Origin: Naegleria gruberi
Taxonomy: Eukaryota
Strand: one strand, 5' to 3'
Length of the DNA: 45,328 bases
NCBI GenBank assembly: GCA_000004985.1
Contig: GG738941.1
Positions 7,467 to 36,385 of the stretch are shown here, in pieces. The translations under genes were made by a program, and so were the position numbers. Under the pieces are notes generated by a model, which saw only the letters and a list, made by a program, of their open reading frames with translations, ran no database searches and was not told the DNA's origin. Position 1 is the stretch's first letter, and each line of letters starts with the position of its first letter.

Positions 7467-7516
7467 NNNNNNNNNNNNNNNNNNNNNNNNNNNNNNNNNN
7501 NNNNNNNNNNNNNNNN
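7467..7516. other. Assembly gap (50 N, typical scaffolder spacer)
   Basis: Exactly 50 n between the satellite and the second CCCAAA array. Confidence 1.
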
Positions 7517-7899
7517 CCCAAACCCAAACCCAAACCCAAACCCAAACCCAAACCCAAACCCAAACCCAAACCCAAACCCAAACCCAAACCCAAACCCAAA
7601 CCCAAACCCAAACCCAAACCCAAACCCAAACCCAAACCCAAACCCAAACCCAAACCCAAACCCAAACCCAAACCCAAACCCAAACCCAAACCCAAACCCA
7701 AACCCAAACCCAAACCCAAACCCAAACCCAAACCCAAACCCAAACCCAAACCCAACCCAAACCCAAACCCAAACCCAAACCCAAACCCAAACCCAAACCC
7801 AAACCCAAACCCAAACCCAAACCCAAACCCAAACCCAAACCCAAACCCAAACCCAAACCCAAACCCAAACCCAAACCCAAACCCAACCCAACCCAACCC
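7517..7899. repeat. Second telomere-type (CCCAAA)n array, ~63 units, same orientation as array 1
   Basis: Almost perfectly homogeneous CCCAAA. There is one CCCAA variant near 7755, and the inner end degenerates to cccaacccaacccaaccc before unique sequence. The array abuts the gap on its 5' side. Confidence 0.9.
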
Positions 7900-11400: not shown

Positions 11401-14400
11401 NNNNNNNNNNNNNNNNNNNNNNNNNNNNNNNNNNNNNNNNNNNNNNNNNNNNNNNNNNNNNNNNNNNNNNNNNNNNNNNNNNNNNNNNNNNNNNNNNNNN
11501 NNNNNNNNNNNNNNNNNNNNNNNNNNNNNNNNNNNNNNNNNNNNNNNNNNNNNNNNNNNNNNNNNNNNNNNNNNNNNNNNNNNNNNNNNNNNNNNNNNNN
11601 NNNNNNNNNNNNNNNNNNNNNNNNNNNNNNNNNNNNNNNNNNNNNNNNNNNNNNNNNNNNNNNNNNNNNNNNNNNNNNNNNNNNNNNNNNNNNNNNNNNN
11701 NNNNNNNNNNNNNNNNNNNNNNNNNNNNNNNNNNNNNNNNNNNNNNNNNNNNNNNNNNNNNNNNNNNNNNNNNNNNNNNNNNNNNNNNNNNNNNNNNNNN
11801 NNNNNNNNNNNNNNNNNNNNNNNNNNNNNNNNNNNNNNNNNNNNNNNNNNNNNNNNNNNNNNNNNNNNNNNNNNNNNNNNNNNNNNNNNNNNNNNNNNNN
11901 NNNNNNNNNNNNNNNNNNNNNNNNNNNNNNNNNNNNNNNNNNNNNNNNNNNNNNNNNNNNNNNNNNNNNNNNNNNNNNNNNNNNNNNNNNNNNNNNNNNN
12001 NNNNNNNNNNNNNNNNNNNNNNNNNNNNNNNNNNNNNNNNNNNNNNNNNNNNNNNNNNNNNNNNNNNNNNNNNNNNNNNNNNNNNNNNNNNNNNNNNNNN
12101 NNNNNNNNNNNNNNNNNNNNNNNNNNNNNNNNNNNNNNNNNNNNNNNNNNNNNNNNNNNNNNNNNNNNNNNNNNNNNNNNNNNNNNNNNNNNNNNNNNNN
12201 NNNNNNNNNNNNNNNNNNNNNNNNNNNNNNNNNNNNNNNNNNNNNNNNNNNNNNNNNNNNNNNNNNNNNNNNNNNNNNNNNNNNNNNNNNNNNNNNNNNN
12301 NNNNNNNNNNNNNNNNNNNNNNNNNNNNNNNNNNNNNNNNNNNNNNNNNNNNNNNNNNNNNNNNNNNNNNNNNNNNNNNNNNNNNNNNNNNNNNNNNNNN
12401 NNNNNNNNNNNNNNNNNNNNNNNNNNNNNNNNNNNNNNNNNNNNNNNNNNNNNNNNNNNNNNNNNNNNNNNNNNNNNNNNNNNNNNNNNNNNNNNNNNNN
12501 NNNNNNNNNNNNNNNNNNNNNNNNNNNNNNNNNNNNNNNNNNNNNNNNNNNNNNNNNNNNNNNNNNNNNNNNNNNNNNNNNNNNNNNNNNNNNNNNNNNN
12601 NNNNNNNNNNNNNNNNNNNNNNNNNNNNNNNNNNNNNNNNNNNNNNNNNNNNNNNNNNNNNNNNNNNNNNNNNNNNNNNNNNNNNNNNNNNNNNNNNNNN
12701 NNNNNNNNNNNNNNNNNNNNNNNNNNNNNNNNNNNNNNNNNNNNNNNNNNNNNNNNNNNNNNNNNNNNNNNNNNNNNNNNNNNNNNNNNNNNNNNNNNNN
12801 NNNNNNNNNNNNNNNNNNNNNNNNNNNNNNNNNNNNNNNNNNNNNNNNNNNNNNNNNNNNNNNNNNNNNNNNNNNNNNNNNNNNNNNNNNNNNNNNNNNN
12901 NNNNNNNNNNNNNNNNNNNNNNNNNNNNNNNNNNNNNNNNNNNNNNNNNNNNNNNNNNNNNNNNNNNNNNNNNNNNNNNNNNNNNNNNNNNNNNNNNNNN
13001 NNNNNNNNNNNNNNNNNNNNNNNNNNNNNNNNNNNNNNNNNNNNNNNNNNNNNNNNNNNNNNNNNNNNNNNNNNNNNNNNNNNNNNNNNNNNNNNNNNNN
13101 NNNNNNNNNNNNNNNNNNNNNNNNNNNNNNNNNNNNNNNNNNNNNNNNNNNNNNNNNNNNNNNNNNNNNNNNNNNNNNNNNNNNNNNNNNNNNNNNNNNN
13201 NNNNNNNNNNNNNNNNNNNNNNNNNNNNNNNNNNNNNNNNNNNNNNNNNNNNNNNNNNNNNNNNNNNNNNNNNNNNNNNNNNNNNNNNNNNNNNNNNNNN
13301 NNNNNNNNNNNNNNNNNNNNNNNNNNNNNNNNNNNNNNNNNNNNNNNNNNNNNNNNNNNNNNNNNNNNNNNNNNNNNNNNNNNNNNNNNNNNNNNNNNNN
13401 NNNNNNNNNNNNNNNNNNNNNNNNNNNNNNNNNNNNNNNNNNNNNNNNNNNNNNNNNNNNNNNNNNNNNNNNNNNNNNNNNNNNNNNNNNNNNNNNNNNN
13501 NNNNNNNNNNNNNNNNNNNNNNNNNNNNNNNNNNNNNNNNNNNNNNNNNNNNNNNNNNNNNNNNNNNNNNNNNNNNNNNNNNNNNNNNNNNNNNNNNNNN
13601 NNNNNNNNNNNNNNNNNNNNNNNNNNNNNNNNNNNNNNNNNNNNNNNNNNNNNNNNNNNNNNNNNNNNNNNNNNNNNNNNNNNNNNNNNNNNNNNNNNNN
13701 NNNNNNNNNNNNNNNNNNNNNNNNNNNNNNNNNNNNNNNNNNNNNNNNNNNNNNNNNNNNNNNNNNNNNNNNNNNNNNNNNNNNNNNNNNNNNNNNNNNN
13801 NNNNNNNNNNNNNNNNNNNNNNNNNNNNNNNNNNNNNNNNNNNNNNNNNNNNNNNNNNNNNNNNNNNNNNNNNNNNNNNNNNNNNNNNNNNNNNNNNNNN
13901 NNNNNNNNNNNNNNNNNNNNNNNNNNNNNNNNNNNNNNNNNNNNNNNNNNNNNNNNNNNNNNNNNNNNNNNNNNNNNNNNNNNNNNNNNNNNNNNNNNNN
14001 NNNNNNNNNNNNNNNNNNNNNNNNNNNNNNNNNNNNNNNNNNNNNNNNNNNNNNNNNNNNNNNNNNNNNNNNNNNNNNNNNNNNNNNNNNNNNNNNNNNN
14101 NNNNNNNNNNNNNNNNNNNNNNNNNNNNNNNNNNNNNNNNNNNNNNNNNNNNNNNNNNNNNNNNNNNNNNNNNNNNNNNNNNNNNNNNNNNNNNNNNNNN
14201 NNNNNNNNNNNNNNNNNNNNNNNNNNNNNNNNNNNNNNNNNNNNNNNNNNNNNNNNNNNNNNNNNNNNNNNNNNNNNNNNNNNNNNNNNNNNNNNNNNNN
14301 NNNNNNNNNNNNNNNNNNNNNNNNNNNNNNNNNNNNNNNNNNNNNNNNNNNNNNNNNNNNNNNNNNNNNNNNNNNNNNNNNNNNNNNNNNNNNNNNNNNN

Positions 14401-17400
14401 NNNNNNNNNNNNNNNNNNNNNNNNNNNNNNNNNNNNNNNNNNNNNNNNNNNNNNNNNNNNNNNNNNNNNNNNNNNNNNNNNNNNNNNNNNNNNNNNNNNN
14501 NNNNNNNNNNNNNNNNNNNNNNNNNNNNNNNNNNNNNNNNNNNNNNNNNNNNNNNNNNNNNNNNNNNNNNNNNNNNNNNNNNNNNNNNNNNNNNNNNNNN
14601 NNNNNNNNNNNNNNNNNNNNNNNNNNNNNNNNNNNNNNNNNNNNNNNNNNNNNNNNNNNNNNNNNNNNNNNNNNNNNNNNNNNNNNNNNNNNNNNNNNNN
14701 NNNNNNNNNNNNNNNNNNNNNNNNNNNNNNNNNNNNNNNNNNNNNNNNNNNNNNNNNNNNNNNNNNNNNNNNNNNNNNNNNNNNNNNNNNNNNNNNNNNN
14801 NNNNNNNNNNNNNNNNNNNNNNNNNNNNNNNNNNNNNNNNNNNNNNNNNNNNNNNNNNNNNNNNNNNNNNNNNNNNNNNNNNNNNNNNNNNNNNNNNNNN
14901 NNNNNNNNNNNNNNNNNNNNNNNNNNNNNNNNNNNNNNNNNNNNNNNNNNNNNNNNNNNNNNNNNNNNNNNNNNNNNNNNNNNNNNNNNNNNNNNNNNNN
15001 NNNNNNNNNNNNNNNNNNNNNNNNNNNNNNNNNNNNNNNNNNNNNNNNNNNNNNNNNNNNNNNNNNNNNNNNNNNNNNNNNNNNNNNNNNNNNNNNNNNN
15101 NNNNNNNNNNNNNNNNNNNNNNNNNNNNNNNNNNNNNNNNNNNNNNNNNNNNNNNNNNNNNNNNNNNNNNNNNNNNNNNNNNNNNNNNNNNNNNNNNNNN
15201 NNNNNNNNNNNNNNNNNNNNNNNNNNNNNNNNNNNNNNNNNNNNNNNNNNNNNNNNNNNNNNNNNNNNNNNNNNNNNNNNNNNNNNNNNNNNNNNNNNNN
15301 NNNNNNNNNNNNNNNNNNNNNNNNNNNNNNNNNNNNNNNNNNNNNNNNNNNNNNNNNNNNNNNNNNNNNNNNNNNNNNNNNNNNNNNNNNNNNNNNNNNN
15401 NNNNNNNNNNNNNNNNNNNNNNNNNNNNNNNNNNNNNNNNNNNNNNNNNNNNNNNNNNNNNNNNNNNNNNNNNNNNNNNNNNNNNNNNNNNNNNNNNNNN
15501 NNNNNNNNNNNNNNNNNNNNNNNNNNNNNNNNNNNNNNNNNNNNNNNNNNNNNNNNNNNNNNNNNNNNNNNNNNNNNNNNNNNNNNNNNNNNNNNNNNNN
15601 NNNNNNNNNNNNNNNNNNNNNNNNNNNNNNNNNNNNNNNNNNNNNNNNNNNNNNNNNNNNNNNNNNNNNNNNNNNNNNNNNNNNNNNNNNNNNNNNNNNN
15701 NNNNNNNNNNNNNNNNNNNNNNNNNNNNNNNNNNNNNNNNNNNNNNNNNNNNNNNNNNNNNNNNNNNNNNNNNNNNNNNNNNNNNNNNNNNNNNNNNNNN
15801 NNNNNNNNNNNNNNNNNNNNNNNNNNNNNNNNNNNNNNNNNNNNNNNNNNNNNNNNNNNNNNNNNNNNNNNNNNNNNNNNNNNNNNNNNNNNNNNNNNNN
15901 NNNNNNNNNNNNNNNNNNNNNNNNNNNNNNNNNNNNNNNNNNNNNNNNNNNNNNNNNNNNNNNNNNNNNNNNNNNNNNNNNNNNNNNNNNNNNNNNNNNN
16001 NNNNNNNNNNNNNNNNNNNNNNNNNNNNNNNNNNNNNNNNNNNNNNNNNNNNNNNNNNNNNNNNNNNNNNNNNNNNNNNNNNNNNNNNNNNNNNNNNNNN
16101 NNNNNNNNNNNNNNNNNNNNNNNNNNNNNNNNNNNNNNNNNNNNNNNNNNNNNNNNNNNNNNNNNNNNNNNNNNNNNNNNNNNNNNNNNNNNNNNNNNNN
16201 NNNNNNNNNNNNNNNNNNNNNNNNNNNNNNNNNNNNNNNNNNNNNNNNNNNNNNNNNNNNNNNNNNNNNNNNNNNNNNNNNNNNNNNNNNNNNNNNNNNN
16301 NNNNNNNNNNNNNNNNNNNNNNNNNNNNNNNNNNNNNNNNNNNNNNNNNNNNNNNNNNNNNNNNNNNNNNNNNNNNNNNNNNNNNNNNNNNNNNNNNNNN
16401 NNNNNNNNNNNNNNNNNNNNNNNNNNNNNNNNNNNNNNNNNNNNNNNNNNNNNNNNNNNNNNNNNNNNNNNNNNNNNNNNNNNNNNNNNNNNNNNNNNNN
16501 NNNNNNNNNNNNNNNNNNNNNNNNNNNNNNNNNNNNNNNNNNNNNNNNNNNNNNNNNNNNNNNNNNNNNNNNNNNNNNNNNNNNNNNNNNNNNNNNNNNN
16601 NNNNNNNNNNNNNNNNNNNNNNNNNNNNNNNNNNNNNNNNNNNNNNNNNNNNNNNNNNNNNNNNNNNNNNNNNNNNNNNNNNNNNNNNNNNNNNNNNNNN
16701 NNNNNNNNNNNNNNNNNNNNNNNNNNNNNNNNNNNNNNNNNNNNNNNNNNNNNNNNNNNNNNNNNNNNNNNNNNNNNNNNNNNNNNNNNNNNNNNNNNNN
16801 NNNNNNNNNNNNNNNNNNNNNNNNNNNNNNNNNNNNNNNNNNNNNNNNNNNNNNNNNNNNNNNNNNNNNNNNNNNNNNNNNNNNNNNNNNNNNNNNNNNN
16901 NNNNNNNNNNNNNNNNNNNNNNNNNNNNNNNNNNNNNNNNNNNNNNNNNNNNNNNNNNNNNNNNNNNNNNNNNNNNNNNNNNNNNNNNNNNNNNNNNNNN
17001 NNNNNNNNNNNNNNNNNNNNNNNNNNNNNNNNNNNNNNNNNNNNNNNNNNNNNNNNNNNNNNNNNNNNNNNNNNNNNNNNNNNNNNNNNNNNNNNNNNNN
17101 NNNNNNNNNNNNNNNNNNNNNNNNNNNNNNNNNNNNNNNNNNNNNNNNNNNNNNNNNNNNNNNNNNNNNNNNNNNNNNNNNNNNNNNNNNNNNNNNNNNN
17201 NNNNNNNNNNNNNNNNNNNNNNNNNNNNNNNNNNNNNNNNNNNNNNNNNNNNNNNNNNNNNNNNNNNNNNNNNNNNNNNNNNNNNNNNNNNNNNNNNNNN
17301 NNNNNNNNNNNNNNNNNNNNNNNNNNNNNNNNNNNNNNNNNNNNNNNNNNNNNNNNNNNNNNNNNNNNNNNNNNNNNNNNNNNNNNNNNNNNNNNNNNNN

Positions 17401-20400
17401 NNNNNNNNNNNNNNNNNNNNNNNNNNNNNNNNNNNNNNNNNNNNNNNNNNNNNNNNNNNNNNNNNNNNNNNNNNNNNNNNNNNNNNNNNNNNNNNNNNNN
17501 NNNNNNNNNNNNNNNNNNNNNNNNNNNNNNNNNNNNNNNNNNNNNNNNNNNNNNNNNNNNNNNNNNNNNNNNNNNNNNNNNNNNNNNNNNNNNNNNNNNN
17601 NNNNNNNNNNNNNNNNNNNNNNNNNNNNNNNNNNNNNNNNNNNNNNNNNNNNNNNNNNNNNNNNNNNNNNNNNNNNNNNNNNNNNNNNNNNNNNNNNNNN
17701 NNNNNNNNNNNNNNNNNNNNNNNNNNNNNNNNNNNNNNNNNNNNNNNNNNNNNNNNNNNNNNNNNNNNNNNNNNNNNNNNNNNNNNNNNNNNNNNNNNNN
17801 NNNNNNNNNNNNNNNNNNNNNNNNNNNNNNNNNNNNNNNNNNNNNNNNNNNNNNNNNNNNNNNNNNNNNNNNNNNNNNNNNNNNNNNNNNNNNNNNNNNN
17901 NNNNNNNNNNNNNNNNNNNNNNNNNNNNNNNNNNNNNNNNNNNNNNNNNNNNNNNNNNNNNNNNNNNNNNNNNNNNNNNNNNNNNNNNNNNNNNNNNNNN
18001 NNNNNNNNNNNNNNNNNNNNNNNNNNNNNNNNNNNNNNNNNNNNNNNNNNNNNNNNNNNNNNNNNNNNNNNNNNNNNNNNNNNNNNNNNNNNNNNNNNNN
18101 NNNNNNNNNNNNNNNNNNNNNNNNNNNNNNNNNNNNNNNNNNNNNNNNNNNNNNNNNNNNNNNNNNNNNNNNNNNNNNNNNNNNNNNNNNNNNNNNNNNN
18201 NNNNNNNNNNNNNNNNNNNNNNNNNNNNNNNNNNNNNNNNNNNNNNNNNNNNNNNNNNNNNNNNNNNNNNNNNNNNNNNNNNNNNNNNNNNNNNNNNNNN
18301 NNNNNNNNNNNNNNNNNNNNNNNNNNNNNNNNNNNNNNNNNNNNNNNNNNNNNNNNNNNNNNNNNNNNNNNNNNNNNNNNNNNNNNNNNNNNNNNNNNNN
18401 NNNNNNNNNNNNNNNNNNNNNNNNNNNNNNNNNNNNNNNNNNNNNNNNNNNNNNNNNNNNNNNNNNNNNNNNNNNNNNNNNNNNNNNNNNNNNNNNNNNN
18501 NNNNNNNNNNNNNNNNNNNNNNNNNNNNNNNNNNNNNNNNNNNNNNNNNNNNNNNNNNNNNNNNNNNNNNNNNNNNNNNNNNNNNNNNNNNNNNNNNNNN
18601 NNNNNNNNNNNNNNNNNNNNNNNNNNNNNNNNNNNNNNNNNNNNNNNNNNNNNNNNNNNNNNNNNNNNNNNNNNNNNNNNNNNNNNNNNNNNNNNNNNNN
18701 NNNNNNNNNNNNNNNNNNNNNNNNNNNNNNNNNNNNNNNNNNNNNNNNNNNNNNNNNNNNNNNNNNNNNNNNNNNNNNNNNNNNNNNNNNNNNNNNNNNN
18801 NNNNNNNNNNNNNNNNNNNNNNNNNNNNNNNNNNNNNNNNNNNNNNNNNNNNNNNNNNNNNNNNNNNNNNNNNNNNNNNNNNNNNNNNNNNNNNNNNNNN
18901 NNNNNNNNNNNNNNNNNNNNNNNNNNNNNNNNNNNNNNNNNNNNNNNNNNNNNNNNNNNNNNNNNNNNNNNNNNNNNNNNNNNNNNNNNNNNNNNNNNNN
19001 NNNNNNNNNNNNNNNNNNNNNNNNNNNNNNNNNNNNNNNNNNNNNNNNNNNNNNNNNNNNNNNNNNNNNNNNNNNNNNNNNNNNNNNNNNNNNNNNNNNN
19101 NNNNNNNNNNNNNNNNNNNNNNNNNNNNNNNNNNNNNNNNNNNNNNNNNNNNNNNNNNNNNNNNNNNNNNNNNNNNNNNNNNNNNNNNNNNNNNNNNNNN
19201 NNNNNNNNNNNNNNNNNNNNNNNNNNNNNNNNNNNNNNNNNNNNNNNNNNNNNNNNNNNNNNNNNNNNNNNNNNNNNNNNNNNNNNNNNNNNNNNNNNNN
19301 NNNNNNNNNNNNNNNNNNNNNNNNNNNNNNNNNNNNNNNNNNNNNNNNNNNNNNNNNNNNNNNNNNNNNNNNNNNNNNNNNNNNNNNNNNNNNNNNNNNN
19401 NNNNNNNNNNNNNNNNNNNNNNNNNNNNNNNNNNNNNNNNNNNNNNNNNNNNNNNNNNNNNNNNNNNNNNNNNNNNNNNNNNNNNNNNNNNNNNNNNNNN
19501 NNNNNNNNNNNNNNNNNNNNNNNNNNNNNNNNNNNNNNNNNNNNNNNNNNNNNNNNNNNNNNNNNNNNNNNNNNNNNNNNNNNNNNNNNNNNNNNNNNNN
19601 NNNNNNNNNNNNNNNNNNNNNNNNNNNNNNNNNNNNNNNNNNNNNNNNNNNNNNNNNNNNNNNNNNNNNNNNNNNNNNNNNNNNNNNNNNNNNNNNNNNN
19701 NNNNNNNNNNNNNNNNNNNNNNNNNNNNNNNNNNNNNNNNNNNNNNNNNNNNNNNNNNNNNNNNNNNNNNNNNNNNNNNNNNNNNNNNNNNNNNNNNNNN
19801 NNNNNNNNNNNNNNNNNNNNNNNNNNNNNNNNNNNNNNNNNNNNNNNNNNNNNNNNNNNNNNNNNNNNNNNNNNNNNNNNNNNNNNNNNNNNNNNNNNNN
19901 NNNNNNNNNNNNNNNNNNNNNNNNNNNNNNNNNNNNNNNNNNNNNNNNNNNNNNNNNNNNNNNNNNNNNNNNNNNNNNNNNNNNNNNNNNNNNNNNNNNN
20001 NNNNNNNNNNNNNNNNNNNNNNNNNNNNNNNNNNNNNNNNNNNNNNNNNNNNNNNNNNNNNNNNNNNNNNNNNNNNNNNNNNNNNNNNNNNNNNNNNNNN
20101 NNNNNNNNNNNNNNNNNNNNNNNNNNNNNNNNNNNNNNNNNNNNNNNNNNNNNNNNNNNNNNNNNNNNNNNNNNNNNNNNNNNNNNNNNNNNNNNNNNNN
20201 NNNNNNNNNNNNNNNNNNNNNNNNNNNNNNNNNNNNNNNNNNNNNNNNNNNNNNNNNNNNNNNNNNNNNNNNNNNNNNNNNNNNNNNNNNNNNNNNNNNN
20301 NNNNNNNNNNNNNNNNNNNNNNNNNNNNNNNNNNNNNNNNNNNNNNNNNNNNNNNNNNNNNNNNNNNNNNNNNNNNNNNNNNNNNNNNNNNNNNNNNNNN

Positions 20401-20461
20401 NNNNNNNNNNNNNNNNNNNNNNNNNNNNNNNNNNNNNNNNNNNNNNNNNNNNNNNNNNNNN
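8434..20461. other. Assembly gap (12028 N)
   Basis: Run of n. The ORF-track entries 8384..20509, 8410..21597 and 8421..20465 are artefacts spanning it. Confidence 1.
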
Positions 20462-21539
20462 ACAATCTGAATCATATAAACACTCTCTTGTACAATAAGA
20501 ATCACACATTTAGGATAACCAGTTATCGTATTGTAACAATAGTTAGTACTAGAACACGAATAAGGTGTAGCAGTACATTGATGGTAAGTTGATTCAGAAC
20601 TTTTAGTTTCACAAATTCCAGTACCTTTTCCAACACATTCCAGATCATTCACACATTCTGGAGCACAAATACCATTAGTACAAGAGGTATAACCAGTTTT
20701 TGTACATTCTGAACTATTGGAACAAGTTTTGGCGACACAATGTTGAGTTGTAATATCACAAACAGGCTTTCCATTAGTACCACATTCAATATCTGAAACA
20801 CACTCTGGTTTACATCTTCCAGTTGTCATATCACAAGTTGGTTTCTTTGGATCTATAGTACACATGTAATTTGCAAGGCATTCCTTAGTACAAACTTTTG
20901 AGGTCGGATTACAATATGAATAACCAGTATAAATACAATCAGAATCAGATGAACAAGGTAGCTCAACACATCTACCCTTAGATGTACTACAGAGATTGTA
21001 ATTGCTTCCCTTAATATTAGGAGCACAATCAGTGTTATTGTAACATTCAGGAAGACAACGATACTTTGTCATATCTTCCTTTAAGGAGCAAAATGGTTTT
21101 GGTTCGCTACAATCAGTATCAGCTGTACACTCCCTTCCGCATTTCTTTCCACTGTTACAGAAAGTAAAACCTTTTACAGTACAATCTGTATCAGCTGAAC
21201 AAGTTTTTTCAGTACAGACTTGGTTGACACATTCACTTTTTCCAATAGACAGGCCCTTTTCAACACAATCGTCATTAGTTAAACAGTCCGGTACACATGT
21301 ACGATAAGTTGAATCCATTTTAGTAGAACACTTTGGACGATCAGGAGTTGAACTACATTCCCAATTGGCAAAACATTGAGGAAGACAAGTTTTTTCTTGG
21401 AATGTTACATATCCGGATGGGAAGGCAATTTCTACATTTGGACCACGACAAACTGCTGCTCCTGGCAATGTACAATTCGAATCACTTGAACAAAGATTAG
21501 CCTTGCATTTGTATTTCACAGGTTGGGTAAACACCAACT
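20462..21539 (-). CDS. Cysteine-rich repeat region, 4 Cys per ~36 aa with a C-x-x-[DN]-[ST]-[DN]-C motif. It is the probable continuation of the upstream 1716-aa ORF after a +1 frame break, and is truncated by the gap
   Basis: Open frame from the gap edge to ~21597. It has no ATG near its 5' end; the track's M is a GTG. It encodes the same repeat type as the C-terminus of ORF 21497..26647 (KCKANLCSSDSNC..., CLPQCFANWEC..., CVPDCLTNDDC...). Confidence 0.5.
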
Positions 21540-24500
21540 GTTGATTTATCGATTCCTCTTTGTTCACAGTCAGTATTATTAAAACAAGCAGGTACACAAA
21601 CTTTTTGGTATGACTCTCCGGTAGGATCTGAAGTGCATGATGTTAAATATTTGTTATTATTGGATAGAGTTTGACAGCTGTCATCAGTCCAACATCCTCT
21701 AAGGTGTCCACATTTACCTGAATTACAACTTGGTAAAAGAGGATTCTTCTTAGTACAATAGTCAGAAATTCCATTTTCACTACATTCTTCAACGCAATAT
21801 CCATACAAAAATACAGCCGGATCAGTTTGACATCTTGGAGAAGTTTTTTGACTAGCACAATCACTGTCACTGTGACAGACAATACTACACTTTCCATCCG
21901 TACATTTTGGTAATGCATAGTTAGTAGTACATTCAAAATCGTATTGACATGCAACATAACCACATAAACCTTCTGAGCTACAGAGTGGTTTTTCAGGATC
22001 GAGAGTTTTACAATAAGAATTGGATGAACATTTTACAACACATTCGGTTCCATCCCAAACATATCCAGAGGCACATTTCATACAAGTAATTCTATCTTCA
22101 CCACAAACATCGCATTGGGTAGTGTTACCTGTAACACAGGATTTTACACACTTACGATATTCAGCAGTATTGTTTGGATTTGAACCGCATCTCTCAAAAC
22201 CAAATTCTTTACAATTGGTATGATTAGTACATTCAACTTCACAAGTACCAATATTAGTACATTTGGAATAATGATACGGATAACAATCAGAAGTGGCAGA
22301 ACAGCTTACACTGGAACAGTTAAAGGTTGTGAGATCACATTTAGGTGTTCCAGTAAATGGAGAGTCACAATCAGCATTACTTTTACAATTCTTGTACAAA
22401 CATCTGTGATAGGTTTCAATATTTGTCTTATCAGAACCACACTCAAAGTATTTACTACTTCCAACTGGACAATCCTTACTTTCCAAACATTCATTTCTAC
22501 AAATTGAATTATTACATTGAGAATATCCATAACTTTGACATTGGGTGTCATTTGCACAAGAGTACATTTTACAGCCACCATCGGAACAATAATGTTTTCC
22601 AATTGAGGTACAATTTTCATTTGATGTACATTCAGGAACACATTTTCCGTAACTGCCATCAGCACTCATTTTACATTTTGGTGTTGGTGAACTACATTGG
22701 CTATCTTGCATACATTCAGCAACGCATCTACCTTTGTAAGTGACATAGATGTCAATATCGACACATTTTGGGAAGTTTGGATCAGTACAAGGTGAAGCAT
22801 AATTTGGCCAACAAGTATCTTCGCGACACCATTTATATGAAGTAACGGTGGTATCGTATTCAGATTCTCTTGTAGTTCCACAATATTTCTTTCCATAAAT
22901 AGGACAATCACTAGTTGTTTCACAAAGTCTTCTTTCACATGTTTTACCTTTGAATCCTAAAGGACAAACACATGTTTCACTTCCGTCCTTATAGTGGAAA
23001 CATGTACCATTGTTTTCACAAGTTAAGGTTGAACAAGGAGTTTGAATTTCACAATATTGTCCAGAATATCCATTTGTACATGTTGTACAAGTATTATAAC
23101 CAGTACACTTTCCTCTTCCTGAACAAACTCTTTTTGAATCCAAGGCAGAAATACCATTACATTGGTCAACACAAGTGTTTGGAGCAATGCACATCTTTGT
23201 TCCATTACAAACACTAGCATTATTGGAAGGAATTCCATCACAAATTGGAATTTCACAATTTGATCCTGTCCAGGTTTCATTACAGCTACAATCATCATTA
23301 TCAACACAAGCACCACGACCAGAACAAACAGAAGCATTATTCGAAAGAATGGAGAAACAACTGAAATCTGAGCATTCACTACCATAGGCTCCTTCATTAC
23401 ATGAACAAACATTATTTGCTGTACAATTACCAGAACCAGAACATACAGAGCTATTACTTTGAGAAATTCCAAAACAAACCGGCTCAGTTACATTACAATT
23501 ACTTCCTTTCCATCCAAGATTACAATAACACTTATCAGTACAAACACCATTACCAGAACAAACCAATGTGCTTGTGCTTGGAATACCTGAACAACTTGCA
23601 AGACATACTTCCTTTGAGTGTTCGTAAAAACATACATAATTTGATGAGGCACAAGTTGTATTAACACAAGGAATTGATAATTCACAATTAACCCCATATC
23701 TACCATAATGGCATGAACAATTGTTCATTGAAACACATGTTCCTTCTCCAGAGCAAACATTAGCATTGGAAGCTGGAATCTTTGAACAAATAGGTTCACA
23801 AGTATTTGGTCCAATGCATTTAGCATCATTACCAAACATAGTACAACCAGCACTTCCATAACAAGTATAATTTTGACACATATTTCCAGTATATCCATCT
23901 TGACATGAACACATATCTGGTTTAACACATGTTCCGTGACCACTGCAAACAGCAGAGCTTAAAGAGCTGTTTCCATAACAGGAATACTCAGTGCAATCAT
24001 AACCACTATATCCAGGAAGACATGAACACTGTGTTAACTCCAAATTTAATTCTACATTAGTGTATCTACTACAATTACCACCATTACATGATAAATAACT
24101 AGCTGCTGGAACACCCTCACAAATAAGAGAGCAAGTTGCTTGATCAATATAGGTTTCAGAAACACATCCCTTTAATTGGGCAATATTGATATATTTAAGC
24201 TTGTTGTCAAAGAAATACAAATCATTTCCATAAAAGAAAATATCAAGAATATCAGAACCAGCCCCTCCAAAAACAACCTGAGAGAAGCTGCCACCAGAAA
24301 ATTTGCTAATTTGTTGTGCACCATATGTGTACAGCTCTCCAGCTGGATTGAATCTGAAATAAGAACCTGGACAACTCTCAGCTACTAACGTAGCACCACT
24401 TGCTTGACCAGGAGTCCAACTGTAAAGATCGGAATTCAAATGATACAATTTACCATTAAAATAGCGCAAAAATCCAAGAGCATAATCAGTTGATTCAGGT

Positions 24501-26647
24501 TGAATAGTTATTTGACTACCAGAATCAGTAAATTTACCAATTTTCCCTGACATTGAAACATAATATGTGTCAGTTTCAGGAACATATGTAAGAGATGTAG
24601 CTAAAGGAGGTCTACCAACAGTACCAAGATAAGTGGATGTTTTAGAAGTAAAAGAATACTTGTAGACATCACCATCACACAAGTACACCAAATCTCCAAA
24701 CTTGTTAAACAAAATGGATATTGAAGGATAGCAATCTAAATTAGAAATAAATGTGGTGACATTTCTTGTTGCCAAATCAAAAGCAAAAACTGACTTGTCA
24801 GCTACTGCTGAAGCATAGATAACACCATTGGAATAGACGAAAGCAGAGGCTTTGAGTTCAGCCAAACCAAGAGGTCCATAGAGTGGGAAAAGATCAATAT
24901 CAGTACGTTTTTCACATTGAGAACCTCCATAACCACTGTCACATGCACAATTGTTTTGAGAAATACATTTTCCTTTTCCTGAACAAACTTTTGGATCAGA
25001 AAAAGCTAATCCATAACAAGTGTCATAAGCCTTTGAACAATCAGAGCCATAGTGAGCCTTATCACAATAACAAAAGTCCTGTGCAACACAGACACCATGT
25101 CCAGAACAAACACTCGAGTTGAAATTGTAAACTCCATTGCATTTGTGAACACAAGTTTCAACTCCCTTCAAATAAAAACACTCTCCACCACAACCCATGT
25201 TTGATACACACGGTTTGAGGAATTCACAATTATTTCCAATAAAACCAAAGGAACATGAACAATTATTTTGTGAGCTACATTCTCCTACACCTGAGCAAAC
25301 AGAAGCACTTGATGCACCAATAGAATTGCATGTGTGTTCGCATGTATCTTGTGCAATACACTTGACCTCGAATCCGTGCTCGCTACATGCTAGAGGATTT
25401 TTATGAGCAATGTTGGAACAGTTGAATGGAGCAATTTCGCACTCAGGTCCATCCCAATCACCCTCACATTCACATATATCCACATCAATACAAACACCAC
25501 GACCAGAGCAAGCATTACTAGAAGCATTCTTACCAAAACATGGAATAACTTCACAATTAATACCACTTGTTCCAGGCTTACACGCACAACCAACAGTTTC
25601 GTTTTGTGAGGTTCCATTTTGTGGTAAGAATTCACTACATTGACCAACACCAGAACAAACATGTGCATCCAATCTACTCAATCCATTACAAACAATATCA
25701 CATGTGGTGTGATTAATAAACGCTTGATTCATACAACCTGAAGGAGTCAACTTTCTTGTAGCACTTCCTTCAGCTACATAAATGTTACCAAATTGATCGA
25801 AATCCAAACTAATTGGAGAAGCATCAGCAGAAAGAGCAGGACCATCATTACCAGTAACTCCAATAGTGCCTGTACCAAATATACGAACCTCCTTTGAACC
25901 AACAAGTCTGAAAACACCATCATCAGTAATCAAGAAAATAACACCAGATGGAGAAACTCTAAAGTTGGTATATTTAGTAGAGCTCAAAGTTATGAAATCA
26001 GTAGCCGAAGAGACACTTTCATCTTTTCCCCATATCTTGATTTTGTTATCCAATAACATGTAGAATTTGTTGTTGAACAATTGCAACTTTGCATTTGAGG
26101 TTTGGCTTATAAAGATTTGAATGCATGAACTAGGATAGTTAACAGATGAACAGAAAGAACCTGTTCTTTTACCATTAATACCATCACCATCACGAATTTG
26201 AATGAAATAAAGAATGTCTGTTGTTGGATCATAAGTGATTGATCTGACAAAATCTGACATGGACCACTTGGAAGTTTCTACGAGAATAGTTCTTTGATAG
26301 TTATGCAGAGAGAAGAGGAAAACATCAGTTTGCCCAAGCTCAGGCATAACAATTACATCTCCATTCTTGTTGATAATAAACTGGTCAAAATTGAGATTAC
26401 TAACCGAACCAAGGCTAGAAATAGAGTTAGAGCCATCAAGTACCTTGAAAGAAGTACCATCGCTAATGACCATCTTTTGGTTCCATGGCAAAACTGAATT
26501 ACCATAGTCGCAAACCTTAGAAACTGTATAGTTGAAATAGCTTCCACACATGGTGGGGCTATCACAGACATATGCTTGAGATGTCGTTGTAGCAAAACAT
26601 GCCCACAACAACAAGCTCAACCACAAAACAAACTCTGCCTTGGCCAT
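21497..26647 (-). CDS. Large secreted multidomain protein: signal peptide; beta-propeller/NHL-like region 1 (~25740-26570); EGF array 1 (~24910-25740); beta-propeller-like region 2 (~24140-24910); EGF array 2 (~22940-24140); 4-Cys repeat region (21497-22940)
   Basis: A 5151-nt uninterrupted ORF with a true ATG at 26647 in 'aaaaaaaatagATGgcc' context. N-terminus MAKAEFVLWLSLLLWACFATTTSQA|YV is a classic signal peptide. Dozens of 6-Cys EGF units of the form C[FY]GIxxxxxxVCSG[HR]GxCxxxxxCxCxxGYxGxxC. Repeats such as DFDQFGNIYVAEG and DILDIFFYGNDLYFFD are NHL/YD-like. Confidence 0.85.
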   Translation of the reverse strand: MAKAEFVLWLSLLLWACFATTTSQAYVCDSPTMCGSYFNYTVSKVCDYGNSVLPWNQKMVISDGTSFKVLDGSNSISSLGSVSNLNFDQFIINKNGDVIVMPELGQTDVFLFSLHNYQRTILVETSKWSMSDFVRSITYDPTTDILYFIQIRDGDGINGKRTGSFCSSVNYPSSCIQIFISQTSNAKLQLFNNKFYMLLDNKIKIWGKDESVSSATDFITLSSTKYTNFRVSPSGVIFLITDDGVFRLVGSKEVRIFGTGTIGVTGNDGPALSADASPISLDFDQFGNIYVAEGSATRKLTPSGCMNQAFINHTTCDIVCNGLSRLDAHVCSGVGQCSEFLPQNGTSQNETVGCACKPGTSGINCEVIPCFGKNASSNACSGRGVCIDVDICECEGDWDGPECEIAPFNCSNIAHKNPLACSEHGFEVKCIAQDTCEHTCNSIGASSASVCSGVGECSSQNNCSCSFGFIGNNCEFLKPCVSNMGCGGECFYLKGVETCVHKCNGVYNFNSSVCSGHGVCVAQDFCYCDKAHYGSDCSKAYDTCYGLAFSDPKVCSGKGKCISQNNCACDSGYGGSQCEKRTDIDLFPLYGPLGLAELKASAFVYSNGVIYASAVADKSVFAFDLATRNVTTFISNLDCYPSISILFNKFGDLVYLCDGDVYKYSFTSKTSTYLGTVGRPPLATSLTYVPETDTYYVSMSGKIGKFTDSGSQITIQPESTDYALGFLRYFNGKLYHLNSDLYSWTPGQASGATLVAESCPGSYFRFNPAGELYTYGAQQISKFSGGSFSQVVFGGAGSDILDIFFYGNDLYFFDNKLKYINIAQLKGCVSETYIDQATCSLICEGVPAASYLSCNGGNCSRYTNVELNLELTQCSCLPGYSGYDCTEYSCYGNSSLSSAVCSGHGTCVKPDMCSCQDGYTGNMCQNYTCYGSAGCTMFGNDAKCIGPNTCEPICSKIPASNANVCSGEGTCVSMNNCSCHYGRYGVNCELSIPCVNTTCASSNYVCFYEHSKEVCLASCSGIPSTSTLVCSGNGVCTDKCYCNLGWKGSNCNVTEPVCFGISQSNSSVCSGSGNCTANNVCSCNEGAYGSECSDFSCFSILSNNASVCSGRGACVDNDDCSCNETWTGSNCEIPICDGIPSNNASVCNGTKMCIAPNTCVDQCNGISALDSKRVCSGRGKCTGYNTCTTCTNGYSGQYCEIQTPCSTLTCENNGTCFHYKDGSETCVCPLGFKGKTCERRLCETTSDCPIYGKKYCGTTRESEYDTTVTSYKWCREDTCWPNYASPCTDPNFPKCVDIDIYVTYKGRCVAECMQDSQCSSPTPKCKMSADGSYGKCVPECTSNENCTSIGKHYCSDGGCKMYSCANDTQCQSYGYSQCNNSICRNECLESKDCPVGSSKYFECGSDKTNIETYHRCLYKNCKSNADCDSPFTGTPKCDLTTFNCSSVSCSATSDCYPYHYSKCTNIGTCEVECTNHTNCKEFGFERCGSNPNNTAEYRKCVKSCVTGNTTQCDVCGEDRITCMKCASGYVWDGTECVVKCSSNSYCKTLDPEKPLCSSEGLCGYVACQYDFECTTNYALPKCTDGKCSIVCHSDSDCASQKTSPRCQTDPAVFLYGYCVEECSENGISDYCTKKNPLLPSCNSGKCGHLRGCWTDDSCQTLSNNNKYLTSCTSDPTGESYQKVCVPACFNNTDCEQRGIDKSTVGVYPTCEIQMQG

Positions 26648-27054
26648 CTATTTTTTTTCTTCAATCAAGTCACAAGTAGGGACGATGTTAAATCGAATCT
26701 ATACACAGCTAAAAACCCATCACCCTATCCATTCTTACTCTTCAGTTCCTTATTTGATTTTGTTTAATAAGGCCAACGCATATTAGAGAGGATCCATTAA
26801 CAACCTTAATTAACGTAACCAGAACAAACAAGTAGCTATTTGCTCAATAATTTCCATTCCTGTCCTTCAGTACGCAAAACAAGCTGCAACCCACAACATT
26901 TGATTTGGGTTCCCAATAGTTTTGTACAAAGACCATCACAGACTTCCTATTCACTACGCACAAACCCTAACAAAATGTTTGCTTCGGAATCTTGAACATT
27001 CATCATGAGCAGTAGTGTTTTATCAAAAAAATTTACGCAGTTTTATCAAAAAAA
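26648..27054. promoter_or_regulatory. Divergent intergenic/promoter region between the minus giant gene and the Sel1 gene
   Basis: 407 bp between two divergently oriented ATGs, both with A-rich -1..-8 contexts. No ORF support. Confidence 0.4.
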
Positions 27055-28494
27055 ATGATAAGAAGTCATCAAGAGATTGCCAATTCCGAAATCGACGAGG
27101 AGCAATTAAATTCTGATCAGACCAATGATGATAATGATCCGAAAGTACAACCAAAGAGTAAAAAAATTATTCGTGTTGATATTCGTTCTTCCGATGGTAC
27201 ATCCTATCATTCCCTAGGTTGTAAGTGTAAAGATGAAAAGGATTATGGGAAAGCCTTTGAATGGTTTACGAAAGGTGCTGAGCAGGGGTGTGCGGAATCA
27301 ACATATAAAATTGGATACTTTTATGCGAATGGATTGGAAGTGGATACAGATTATTCGAAAGCTATGGAATGGTATTTGAAGGCTGCTGAAATGGGGTTTA
27401 CTAAACCAATAGTTCAAATTGGATATTTATATTTCTTTGGAAAAGGAGTTGAACAGGATTATGTGGAAGCTTTAAAGTGGTTTTTAAAAGCTGTCGAAAA
27501 GGGAAGTGCGGAAGCATACGTTAGTATGGGAAATTTATATTCTAAAGGAACAGGAGTGGAACGAGATCTCTCTAAAGCTATGGAATGGTATTTGAAGGCT
27601 GCAGAAAATGGTTGTTCAACAGCACAATTTAATATTGGGCGGTCTTATTATTTCGGTTTTGGAGTGGAAAGAAATTATTCGAAAGCGGTAGAATGGTATT
27701 TAAAAGCTGCTGAAAATGGAAATACATCTGCACAATTTAAAGTTGGATTTTTATTTGAAACGGGAAAGGGAATTGAGAAGAATTTCAAAAAAGAAGTGTT
27801 TTGGAAATCAAAATATTTTAATACTGATAATTTTACGTTTATTGAAGATCCTTACGATCAATTTGCAATTCAAAATTTTACACCAGCAGGGCTTTGTGAC
27901 GAAAAGGAAATTGAAGAGGATTCAATAATGGAAGAAGTAATTATTCGATTTGAAGAGAGAGATTTTACAATCGTACACAAATATTTGAAATCATGTAAAT
28001 ATTTAACAACAATGATGAATTCAAATTGGAAAGATTTTAATCTAAAAGAACAGAATTGTATAGTACTTGATTTGAGATCTGTTCAAAATCAAATATTTCA
28101 AACTCAAGAAAACACCAATCACATCCAAATATTTGAGAATTATGTGGAATATTTAACCAATAATGCCATACCAAATGATTTTGATATGAAATTGAAATTA
28201 ATAGAACTATCGAAATATTTACAAGATGATTCATGTATTTTGAAAATAGTTAATCAATCGAGTATTCTAATGAGACTATATTTTCTTTTCAAGTTTGAAA
28301 ATATTGAACCAGTTCATCTTGCAATTGCTAGCTGCTTTGTAATGGGTGATTTATTTACAACAATGAATGATCTTTCACCAAATAGTATTGAAACCTTGTT
28401 GAATGAAATTGAATTATCACCAATGGGAAAGAAGAAGATTTTGGATGTTCTAGTCAATAATAAGTTTCCAAACTCTGTAATATTCAGTAAGTAA
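27055..28494 (+). CDS. Sel1-like repeat (SLR/TPR-like) protein with a C-terminal BTB/POZ-like segment; the annotated stop is probably inside an intron donor
   Basis: ATG in 'caaaaaaaATGata' context. At least 5 tandem ~36-aa Sel1 repeats (KAMEWYLKAAEMG...IGYLYFFGKGVEQDYVEALKWF...). The downstream segment EVIIRFEERDFTIVHKYLKSCKYLTTMMNS resembles a BTB fold. The stop TAA 28492-94 lies within AG|GTAAGTAA. Confidence 0.8.
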   Translation: MIRSHQEIANSEIDEEQLNSDQTNDDNDPKVQPKSKKIIRVDIRSSDGTSYHSLGCKCKDEKDYGKAFEWFTKGAEQGCAESTYKIGYFYANGLEVDTDYSKAMEWYLKAAEMGFTKPIVQIGYLYFFGKGVEQDYVEALKWFLKAVEKGSAEAYVSMGNLYSKGTGVERDLSKAMEWYLKAAENGCSTAQFNIGRSYYFGFGVERNYSKAVEWYLKAAENGNTSAQFKVGFLFETGKGIEKNFKKEVFWKSKYFNTDNFTFIEDPYDQFAIQNFTPAGLCDEKEIEEDSIMEEVIIRFEERDFTIVHKYLKSCKYLTTMMNSNWKDFNLKEQNCIVLDLRSVQNQIFQTQENTNHIQIFENYVEYLTNNAIPNDFDMKLKLIELSKYLQDDSCILKIVNQSSILMRLYFLFKFENIEPVHLAIASCFVMGDLFTTMNDLSPNSIETLLNEIELSPMGKKKILDVLVNNKFPNSVIFSK

Positions 28495-33867: not shown

Positions 33868-35557
33868 ATGATCACACAACCAAACCATTCCATCACATCA
33901 AAAGTCACTGAAAATATCCTATTCTCTGATGATGCACTTTTTGAAATTTTATCTTTTCACAATGATTTTACATTTATTGTAACCAGTTGTGCATTAGTTT
34001 CGAAACAGTGGTTTAATGTCATTAAATATAATTGTAAACACCTCTCCATATCATATTATGGTGATCGGGAAATGGTTGGTCAATTTTTGGAAAATATTGC
34101 ACCTTGGAGTGAGAATGAATGAAGAAATTGGATTTAATTTACAGGTTTTGGATTCGATGAAAGGATTGAAAAAACTCAATTTAGAATACAATAATAATAT
34201 TGATCCAAACGGAATTAAGTATTTAGGCTCACTGAAACAATTGACTGATCTCAATATATCTTGTTGTTACATTGGATTGACTGAGAATTTGAGTTATTTG
34301 ACATTATTGAAAGCACTAACTCATCTTGATATAGCGAGTAATAATATTAGTGCAGAAGGAGCCAAATGCATTGGTGAAATGAAGCAATTGGCTAATCTTT
34401 CTATTGGTTCCAATGATATTGGAACAGAAGGAGCCAAGTATATTGGTGAAATGAAGCAATTGAAACAACTTCATATTGCTAATAATAATATTGGCCCAGA
34501 AGGAGCCAAGTACATTAGTGGTCTTGAACAATTAACTTATCTTGATATCTGTTTAAATGATATTAACGAATATGGAGCAAAGTGTATTAGTTAATTGAAA
34601 CAGTTGACTTACCTTGATTGTGTTGGAAACCGTATTTGTGATGGTGGAGCTAAATTTATAAGTGAAATGAAACAATTAACTAATCTTAATGTTCGACATA
34701 ATGATATTGATGAGGAGGGAGCCAAGTATATTAGTGAATTGATGAATGTAAGCACACTTGATATTAGTGGTAATTCTATTAATAAGAGGGGAGCCAAGTA
34801 TATTGGTGAAATGAAACAATTAACAGATCTTGGAATGTATTGTTGTAGCATTGGAGTGGAAGGAACAAAATATATTTCATCATTGAATCAATTAACTCAT
34901 CTTTCTATCAACATAAATAATATTGGGGATGAAGGAGCCAAGTACATTGGCCAAATCAAACAATTAACAGATCTTAGCATATGTGATAATAAGATTGGAA
35001 GTGAAGGAGTAAAATATATTGGTCAATTGAAAAATTTACTTAAACTTTACGTTTCTTGCAATGAGATTGGAGATAATGGAGCTCAATTTATAAGTGAAAT
35101 GAACCAATTGACTAAACTTGATATTTCGAGTGTTAATATTACACCAATAGGTATAAAATATATCAGTAAAATGGAGCATTTAATTGACCTAATGATTAGT
35201 GATAATAATATTGATTCGATGGGCGCAAAACATATCAGTCAAATGAAATTAACAAGTCTTGAAGTCTATAACAATACCATTGATGTTGAAGGAGCTAAAT
35301 ATCTAAGTGAAATGGAACAATTAACTAATCTTGAGATATCTAAAAATGAAATTGGTGACAAAGGTGTACAATTCTTAAGTGGAATGAAGCAATTAACCAG
35401 CCTTGACATAAATGAAAATAAGATAAGCGACGTGGGAGCCAAATATATTCTGGAAATGAAGAATTTGATAGATCTGAGTGTATTTGACAATGAGATCAGT
35501 GAGGATATAATTGAACGTTTAAGAGAAATGAAACAGTTAACTTATCTTGATATTTAA
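33868..35557 (+). CDS. F-box + RNI-type LRR protein locus, disrupted: F-box segment 33868..34122 (frame 1), LRR segment 34016..34591 (frame 2), in-frame TAA at 34592-34594, LRR segment 34595..35557; intron and/or pseudogene
   Basis: ATG at 33868 in 'ttaaaaaaATGatc' context. F-box motif ILFSDDALFEILSFHNDFTFIVTSCALVSKQWFNVI. There are then >20 tandem ~24-aa LRRs of type LTxLDISxNxIGxEGAKYI[SG]EMKQ. The LRR frame is +1 relative to the F-box frame. TAA 34592-94 sits where every other repeat has a GAA/CAA/GGA-type codon, the following TTG is in the same frame, and the repeat register continues across it. Confidence 0.6.
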
Positions 35558-36385
35558 AATAGGAAAATCTTTTATGTAATATACTTTTTCTTGAACCTTT
35601 GAAATGACAAAATGAAATCTATTCCACAAATGGATTTCTTTCTGTCTATTTGTAAACTCTCAAAGTGTGGTGAAATAAGTGTCACATCAGATCGAGAACT
35701 TTTCCTAATGGGCCACAAAATAACGACTTGTAAACTTTGCCAATAATCTTTTTCACTTTCGAATAACTCCTGGTTACCATGTGACACATTTGATGTTTTA
35801 AATAAATATTCAATCAAAAAAATCTTCATCACATGTAGCAGCAATTCCGCGTAAAATCTATAAATTTGTTTCCCATGACTTGTTCTTCATTAAATAATAA
35901 TATTAATTGTCAATATGGCAATGATGATAGTGATGAATTTTTTTAATTAAAATTACATTTGATTATTCAACATTTAAAGCGGTTCATCCTTCCGATTTAT
36001 CAACAATTAATTTTAAAAGGAGCACATACACATTATTGCGTAATGGCAAAAGGTCGACCAATTTTATCTGAACGAACGAGTTGTTGGGTTGTCTGCAAAC
36101 TATTACGATTCTCTAAAAACAGTGAGTTGCACTACAACTACCAATTATATCAGGCCGAACTCATCAATGAGAACCCTTCTTCCTGTTGGCTGTAAAGTAA
36201 TTCTTCCAGGAAAAACAGCTCGAGTGGGCGCCTTAATAACACAATAATAAGGAAACTGATGTTACACTTCAATAGAGATATTTGAAAAAACAACAAGACT
36301 CATCTTCTGTCTGACTAGTGAGAAATTACTCTCTTTTGAATTATTAAGCCCTGTAGTAGTTTCAAAGTAGTGGTAGTAATATAGC

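Follow-up and report, generated by a model that had tools for sequence, protein, structure and literature searches.

A Naegleria gruberi gene coding for NHL-like propeller modules, teneurin/tenascin-type EGF arrays and four-cysteine repeats: a probable giant surface or secreted glycoprotein

Animal teneurins are type II membrane proteins in which eight EGF repeats are followed by TTR, FN-plug and NHL modules, a YD shell and Tox-GHH. The combination of an NHL propeller with EGF repeats also occurs in giant proteins of the amoeba Naegleria, as exemplified by P0075 and P0080 of N. gruberi and P0077 of N. lovaniensis (annotated as 'predicted protein' or 'EGF-like domain-containing protein'), which consist of a signal peptide, an NHL propeller (NHL/TEN_NHL), a long teneurin-type EGF array and a C-terminal hydrophobic region of transmembrane type. 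In the related N. fowleri, 28 seven-transmembrane (7TM)-RGS proteins have been described, some of them with GPS motifs and EGF/lectin ectodomains, and likened to adhesion G protein-coupled receptors (GPCRs) (Bosch et al., 2022; PMC9283941). The gene analysed here, hereafter gene A, is an intronless open reading frame (ORF) of 1716 codons and a TAA stop at positions 21497-26647 (minus strand) of a stretch of 45,328 nt, the window, from contig GG738941.1 of the N. gruberi draft assembly GCA_000004985.1. The probability that such a frame is open by chance, computed as for the other frames below at the local base composition, is ~3e-55. It is likely that gene A codes for the extracellular portion of a giant glycoprotein, secreted or displayed at the surface of this heterolobosean amoeba, and that it belongs to a lineage-specific family that combines an N-terminal NHL beta-propeller with long arrays of 35-residue EGF units of the teneurin/tenascin type. 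Within this family, which was already known from Naegleria, gene A is a new but fairly ordinary representative that carries one additional type of repeat.

Mapping of the cysteines divides the protein into a signal peptide, a module A1, an EGF array, a module A2, a second EGF array and a region of four-Cys repeats, all encoded on the minus strand. The signal peptide, predicted by reading the sequence, spans aa 1-24 (MAKAEFVLWLSLLLWACFATTTSQA; 26576-26647; one Cys). It is followed by A1, read as a divergent NHL-type beta-propeller (aa 25-304; 25736-26575; five Cys), the last part of which is a canonical NHL blade (aa 258-304, GTGTIGVTGNDGPALSADASPISLDFDQFGNIYVAEGSATRKLTPSG; 25736-25876), and by EGF array 1 (aa 305-580; 24908-25735; 40 Cys), in which teneurin/tenascin-type units are accompanied by truncated four-Cys units. 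Module A2, a degenerate paralogue of A1 (aa 581-827; 24167-24907; three Cys), precedes EGF array 2 (aa 828-1238; 22934-24166; 62 Cys), whose last unit is a classical EGF (aa 1205-1237). The rest of the ORF is the four-Cys repeat region (aa 1239-1716; 21500-22933; 65 Cys in ~16 units), which contains a furin-like CxxC insert at about aa 1500-1540. Gene A evidently grew by tandem duplication of the whole propeller and EGF cassette, the two copies of which align colinearly with 31% identity over 493 aa (E 1e-57). Scattered among the full units of both EGF arrays (22934-25735) are five truncated four-Cys 'half-EGF' units, e.g., CDGIPSNNASVCNGTKMCIAPNTCVDQ and CYGSAGCTMFGNDAKCIGPNTCEPI. Four of the five stand at matching positions of both cassettes, forming two pairs, while the fifth lies outside the colinear alignment; the irregular pattern of the two pairs is therefore older than the cassette duplication.

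The best relatives of gene A are giant proteins of N. lovaniensis, N. fowleri, N. gruberi and Acrasis kona. Thirteen named Naegleria/Acrasis proteins match it with E-values from 5e-169 to 4e-26, including P0073 (N. lovaniensis, 5e-169), P0074 (N. fowleri, 2.5e-157), P0075 and P0076 (N. gruberi, 5e-144 and 1.3e-134), P0077 (N. lovaniensis, 7e-111), P0078 (A. kona, 3e-105) and P0080 (N. gruberi, 4.5e-82). With the NHL-EGF proteins P0075, P0077 and P0080, gene A shares the signal peptide, the N-terminal NHL-type propeller and arrays of 35-aa EGF units with the Cys spacing 10-5-5-1-8. The junction between propeller and EGF array is framed by cysteines in the pattern C-x10-12-C-x3-C-[NE]-G, which visual inspection shows in P0080 and, less distinctly, in P0077, and the P0077 locus is likewise a single-exon gene. 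Gene A differs from these proteins in the tandem duplication of its propeller and EGF cassette, in propellers that are far more degenerate and lack a Pfam NHL match, and in a four-Cys region of at least 28 units that is absent from all matches; a part with REJ, GPS, transmembrane or RGS elements is not visible in it. An RGS domain is found in P0073, P0074 and P0080, the last being the only one of the three NHL-EGF proteins to carry it. P0073 and P0080 also display a GPS-like motif (C-x-C-x-H-T-T-[ML]-F) ahead of a multi-pass membrane region and the C-terminal RGS domain, an adhesion-GPCR-like layout outside animals. The 7TM-RGS proteins of N. fowleri, which come from the same organism group, have the same kind of EGF-rich ectodomain as gene A. 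In contrast to them, no GPS, 7TM or RGS element occurs in the 2061 visible residues of gene A, the 3' part of which lies inside an assembly gap of 12028 N (8434-20461). In heterolobosean and unnamed matches, the same type of EGF unit is joined to RCC1, REJ, jacalin or RGS domains, and it is therefore used freely as a module. The union of an NHL propeller with a teneurin/tenascin-type EGF array is thus not an animal speciality but a recurrent heterolobosean build, in which one EGF scaffold is combined with many heads.

The sequence-only reading of the window had proposed an EGF/NHL/YD-like, teneurin-style architecture that would be unusual outside animals. Like the teneurins, gene A does combine an NHL propeller with EGF repeats of the tenascin type in a single extracellular protein. 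True kinship, under which gene A would be an EGF/NHL/YD protein of common ancestry with animal teneurins or with their bacterial YD-toxin ancestors, could be read from the names of the Pfam models that match it (EGF_TEN and EGF_Teneurin) and from the TEN_NHL domains carried by remote matches of the A1/A2 profile. However, such kinship is very improbable. Pfam reported no YD/RHS, TTR, FN-plug or Tox-GHH match in the visible sequence, either for the whole ORF at E<=1 or for separate pieces at E<=10, so that a YD-like component is not supported. The N-terminus is a 24-aa segment resembling a signal peptide instead of a type II anchor, each NHL-like module precedes its EGF array whereas in teneurins the EGF repeats come before NHL, and the same EGF type occurs with RCC1, REJ, jacalin and RGS in free modular use. 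The supposed rarity of the build outside animals is contradicted by P0075, P0077 and P0080 of Naegleria, which are already constructed in this way. The label 'teneurin-style' reflects the names of Pfam models more than kinship.

The assignment of the two beta modules is less straightforward than that of the EGF units. Searched in pieces against Pfam at E<=10, A1 and A2 yielded nothing at threshold; NHL was not reported and the best relevant entry was SBBP (0.075, sub-threshold). No match to NHL or TEN_NHL (PF01436, PF25021) reaches the Pfam gathering threshold anywhere in gene A. A word-index homologue search with A1 retrieved nothing beyond a metagenome contig that carries this same locus, and a sequence search of the PDB with the A1/A2 profile gave nothing significant. 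A profile built from A1 and A2, which are 23% identical to each other (E 7e-7), matched 72 proteins at E<=1e-3 among 1.84 billion representatives. One of these is the same locus (P0001), and the best nine of the remaining matches are all TEN_NHL/NHL propeller proteins, with scores arising from many weak matches of profile positions ~215-292 to successive blades. An independent blade hidden Markov model (HMM), made from 733 blades of those proteins, gave 35.5 bits for aa 258-304 of gene A, where the motif GTGxxGxxGNDGPAxSAxxxPxxLxxDxxGNIYVAE of the last A1 blade is that of a canonical NHL blade. When the A1/A2 profile was compared by hhalign with a 44-row NHL alignment, a probability of 95.5% was obtained (score 65.8, 250 columns). 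In the controls, 30 column shuffles scored at most 18.3 (<=0.4%), the reversed alignment 14.3 (0.1%), and a module of the neighbouring gene B, described below, reached 0.1%. Taken singly against the same alignment, A1 reached 96.3% and A2 1.1%. In our reading, A1 would be an NHL-type propeller that has diverged and has kept a single blade in good order, and A2 a degenerate copy of it that can be called NHL-like by paralogy only. The earlier description of both modules as NHL- or beta-propeller-like therefore holds for A1, with its 35.5-bit blade, hhalign probabilities of 95-96% and clean controls, and not for A2 on its own. Bacterial NHL-repeat propeller proteins (P0003, P0088) resemble the last A1 blade in the pattern GxGxxGxxGDGGPAxxAxxxxPxxxxxDxxGNxYxAD and in the profile alignment over 250 columns. 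They differ from A1 in that the latter has a single canonical blade, its other blades not being recognisable one by one, and is set in a eukaryotic EGF protein.

The EGF units of gene A can be compared with those of a second giant gene of the window, gene B (36380-45328, plus strand), which is longer than 2983 codons and continues beyond the window; its 44 EGF units are accompanied by a module of 205-250 aa that is present in five copies. In gene A, Pfam matches are confined to EGF families, namely EGF_TEN (2.9e-24; 86.4 bits, cutoff 65), EGF_Teneurin (6.7e-12) and EGF_2 (1.4e-9), and these same three families match gene B. Counted with a six-Cys regular expression, gene A has 10 EGF units to the 44 of gene B, and the Cys spacing 10-5-5-1-8 dominates in both (7 of 10 and 29 of 44 units, respectively), as it does in five Naegleria/Acrasis proteins (76 such units). 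The claim that the two genes carry the same EGF subtype is thus well founded, and the EGF strings quoted for gene A are indeed found there (CFGISQSNSSVCSGSGNC at aa 1058 and CYGNSSLSSAVCSGHGTC at aa 890). The further claim of domain shuffling between the two genes does not hold. The mean identity of EGF units outside the cysteines is 0.35 within gene A and 0.30 between genes A and B, as against 0.32-0.35 between gene A and the Naegleria/Acrasis proteins, and the best DNA matches between the two genes are short (34-60 nt at 77-88% identity, with weaker ones of up to 139 nt at 68%). Neither unit identities nor DNA matches indicate that genes A and B have recently exchanged sequence or evolved in concert. 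As judged from these comparisons, the teneurin/tenascin-type EGF subtype is common to giant proteins of Naegleria and Acrasis, genes A and B being no closer to each other than to the rest, and its sharing is an old family trait and not the outcome of local exchange.

The four-Cys repeats have no counterpart among the relatives. The ORF tail (aa 1239-1711) holds the 65 Cys of ~16 units, and about 28 units are present in the visible protein, including those beyond the stop codon described below. Twenty-four regular units follow the pattern C-x5-C-x(6-15)-C-x(3-20)-C-x(3-4), with linkers of three residues (often ending in Glu) and of four residues both common and often alternating. The sequence-only reading had reported about 15 copies of a four-Cys repeat with a C-x-x-[DN]-[ST]-[DN]-C core. 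The repeat is borne out, and the strict core is found in just two units within the ORF and five past the stop, the other ORF units having looser variants. Pfam searches of both tail pieces at E<=10 returned no family, Dicty_CTDC (PF00526), which had been suggested for these repeats, included. No homologue of the tail was found by word-index search among 5.8 billion proteins, and neither the tail nor a profile of the four-Cys unit gave a significant match in a PDB sequence search. The best PDB match, a late nodulin (E 0.18), was taken as a chance resemblance of a four-Cys hairpin. BLASTP matches of the tail to Naegleria EGF arrays at ~22% identity, obtained without composition correction, were rejected as artefacts of cysteine periodicity. 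We regard the repeat as disulfide-rich and unclassified, and its simplest interpretation is a stalk.

The four-Cys array does not end at the annotated stop codon. The TAA at 21499-21497 falls within the array, at an apparent frameshift of 1 nt (tgtgaaatacaaatgcaaggcTAA; 21497-21520, minus strand); when one A is dropped from gaaa, PTCEYKCKANLCSSDSNC (YPTCEYKCKANLCSSDSNC) is obtained, which preserves the Cys periodicity. In the +1 frame, four-Cys repeats continue for 351 codons (20464-21516, minus strand; 48 Cys in ~12 units; chance ~7e-12) with the same Cys spacing and the same Cys content as the ORF tail (13.7%), and the frame stays open up to the run of N at 20461. An intron in place of the frameshift at 21515 was rejected because the sole GT...AG pair at the site spans just 18 nt. 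Since the repeats go on in the other frame into the gap, the visible protein comprises at least 2061 aa and its true C-terminus is unseen, so that the earlier statement that the gene ends with these repeats, which run on past the frameshift at ~21511-21520, must be revised. The TAA is most likely due to a sequencing or assembly error of 1 nt, or else to a very recent lesion. For annotation this means that the stop codon of gene A is probably false and the gene truncated by the gap, and that claims on its anchor or signalling end depend on the gap sequence. By analogy with the Naegleria relatives, a GPS motif and transmembrane helices may be encoded in the hidden 3' end, perhaps together with an RGS domain.

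A different view of the frameshift is that it is real and that gene A is a decaying subtelomeric pseudogene, a recently inactivated copy from a fast-evolving family of surface proteins. The interruption of the repeat array by a TAA with resumption in another frame would fit this view, as would telomere-type repeats close by and a neighbouring leucine-rich repeat (LRR) gene with an in-frame TAA (34592-34594) where its other repeats carry Glu. An environmental sequence also has to be considered. The metagenome contig L001 (ENA ERZ929261, 2748 bp) is 98-99.5% identical to window positions 25100-27195, i.e., the 5' part of gene A and the region upstream. It lacks 20 nt of module A1 (25908-25927), diverges totally into AT-rich sequence after position 25100, and shows six nonsynonymous to three synonymous differences from gene A. 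The contig would thus stem from the same or a sister strain in that sample, with either a disrupted copy or a chimeric assembly; no literature was found on the metagenome project (PRJEB11402). We regard the pseudogene explanation as unlikely. The 1716 and 351 codons are otherwise free of stops (P ~3e-55 and ~7e-12), and with more than 2000 otherwise clean codons any inactivation would have to be very recent. Furthermore, the shift sits in a short A run (gaaa) of a draft scaffold that is 38% N, where errors of 1 nt are common, and nine substitutions are too few for judging selection.

Returning to a functional giant glycoprotein, a tentative mechanism can be outlined. With its signal peptide, the protein would enter the secretory pathway; the two propellers might act as ligand-binding heads, and the EGF arrays together with the at least 28 four-Cys units would build a stiff, glycosylated stalk that keeps the heads off the cell. 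Such a protein may serve in adhesion to, or sensing of, prey, substrate or other cells. Several observations weigh against parts of this interpretation. No membrane anchor is visible in gene A, which makes its surface location a matter of interpretation. Naegleria proteins resemble gene A in the EGF arrays only, over 16-28% of the query and at 28-37% identity, and the frameshift could be real, in which case the near-identical environmental copy with its 20-nt deletion and 6:3 ratio of nonsynonymous to synonymous differences would be compatible with decay. With regard to the propellers, A2 by itself is not NHL-like (1.1% against the NHL alignment), the AlphaFold model of A1 from a two-row alignment is poor (predicted local distance difference test, pLDDT, 38) and gives a weak hint at most, and hhalign comparisons of A1/A2 with single NHL regions of Naegleria proteins gave non-significant probabilities of <=2.9%, for which reason orthology of the propellers is not claimed.

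The anchor also bears on whether gene A might encode a soluble secreted protein of the matrix or cyst wall, built into an extracellular layer and not acting as a receptor. This is possible, if on balance rather improbable. The N-terminus resembles a signal peptide and no transmembrane segment is found in the 2061 visible residues, among which no 19-mer exceeds a Kyte-Doolittle mean of 1.6. The repeat regions contain ~14% Cys, there are many N-x-S/T sequons (33 in the visible residues), and the four-Cys tail is absent from the receptor-like relatives of Naegleria. Against this stands the 12-kb gap that hides the C-terminus, and the four relatives that were read all have C-terminal hydrophobic stretches of transmembrane type, two of them, P0073 and P0080, with a GPS-like motif and RGS in addition. 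No long-standing question is opened by these findings.

While genes A and B share their EGF type, the modules set between the arrays are unrelated, as the sequence-only reading had maintained: hhalign gave a probability of 0.5% for the gene A modules (aa 25-304 and 581-827) against the five of gene B. The gene B copies are 26-45% identical to the first copy and have no Pfam match. AlphaFold modelling from the five copies (pLDDT 57.5; predicted template modelling score 0.62; core 70-86) gave a long helix followed by beta strands, and this model, of moderate confidence, suggests a resemblance to beta-helices of the ice-binding type (DUF3494). The module differs from DUF3494/IBP-1 ice-binding-like beta-helices in its lack of a Pfam match, the pLDDT of 57.5 and Foldseek E-values that are not significant. 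One may speculate, as an idea that is more likely wrong than right by a wide measure, that the four-Cys unit, of the form C-x-[ST]-[DN]-x-[DNE]-C-x(6-15)-C-x(3-20)-C-x(3-4), represents an extracellular repeat not described before, of which at least 28 copies make up a stalk. Under the same idea, genes A and B would be part of a subtelomeric set of giant surface-protein genes that diversifies rapidly, with a shared EGF scaffold carrying exchangeable heads (NHL propeller, ice-binding-like beta-helix) and with gain, internal duplication and inactivation of genes. If true, this would be a contingency-gene arrangement like that of pathogens in a free-living heterolobosean. The four-Cys repeat and the ice-binding-like modules of gene B are, in any case, small leads for surveys of protist surface proteins.

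Other genes of the window code for Sel1, LRR and C2 proteins. Exact matches to gene A and to two of its neighbours were absent from the protein collection searched. The F-box-like/LRR (RNI-type) gene with the in-frame TAA (33868-35557, plus strand) is broken at that codon, which replaces the Glu of a GAKxISEMKQLT repeat (agt TAA ttg aaa cag, as against agt GAA atg inferred from the SEM of the other repeats). Its F-box-like N-terminal ORF (33868-34122) is in another frame than the LRR ORF, which starts at 34016. This gene is likely a pseudogene or the product of a draft error.

The window contains 17,435 N in four runs (1066, 1100-6455, 7467-7516 and 8434-20461), and its GC content is ~36% in coding stretches and ~30% elsewhere. 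Two telomere-type arrays of (CCCAAA)n on the plus strand are found at the window start (1-425) and at 7517-7890, the latter being the closer one to gene A. They agree with TTTGGG, the candidate telomere repeat of N. gruberi (PMC3622300), which makes the proposed subtelomeric location plausible. Both arrays have the same orientation, and the second follows the 50-N gap, 7 kb into the window. Two such 'left-end' telomere arrays on a single scaffold suggest either that contigs with telomeric ends were wrongly joined in the scaffold or that a telomeric array lies in an interstitial position. Between gaps, at 6456-7466, lies an AT-rich non-coding piece with a tandem-like repeat of ~350 and 660 bp, the copies of which are 73-90% identical and which could be a subtelomeric satellite.

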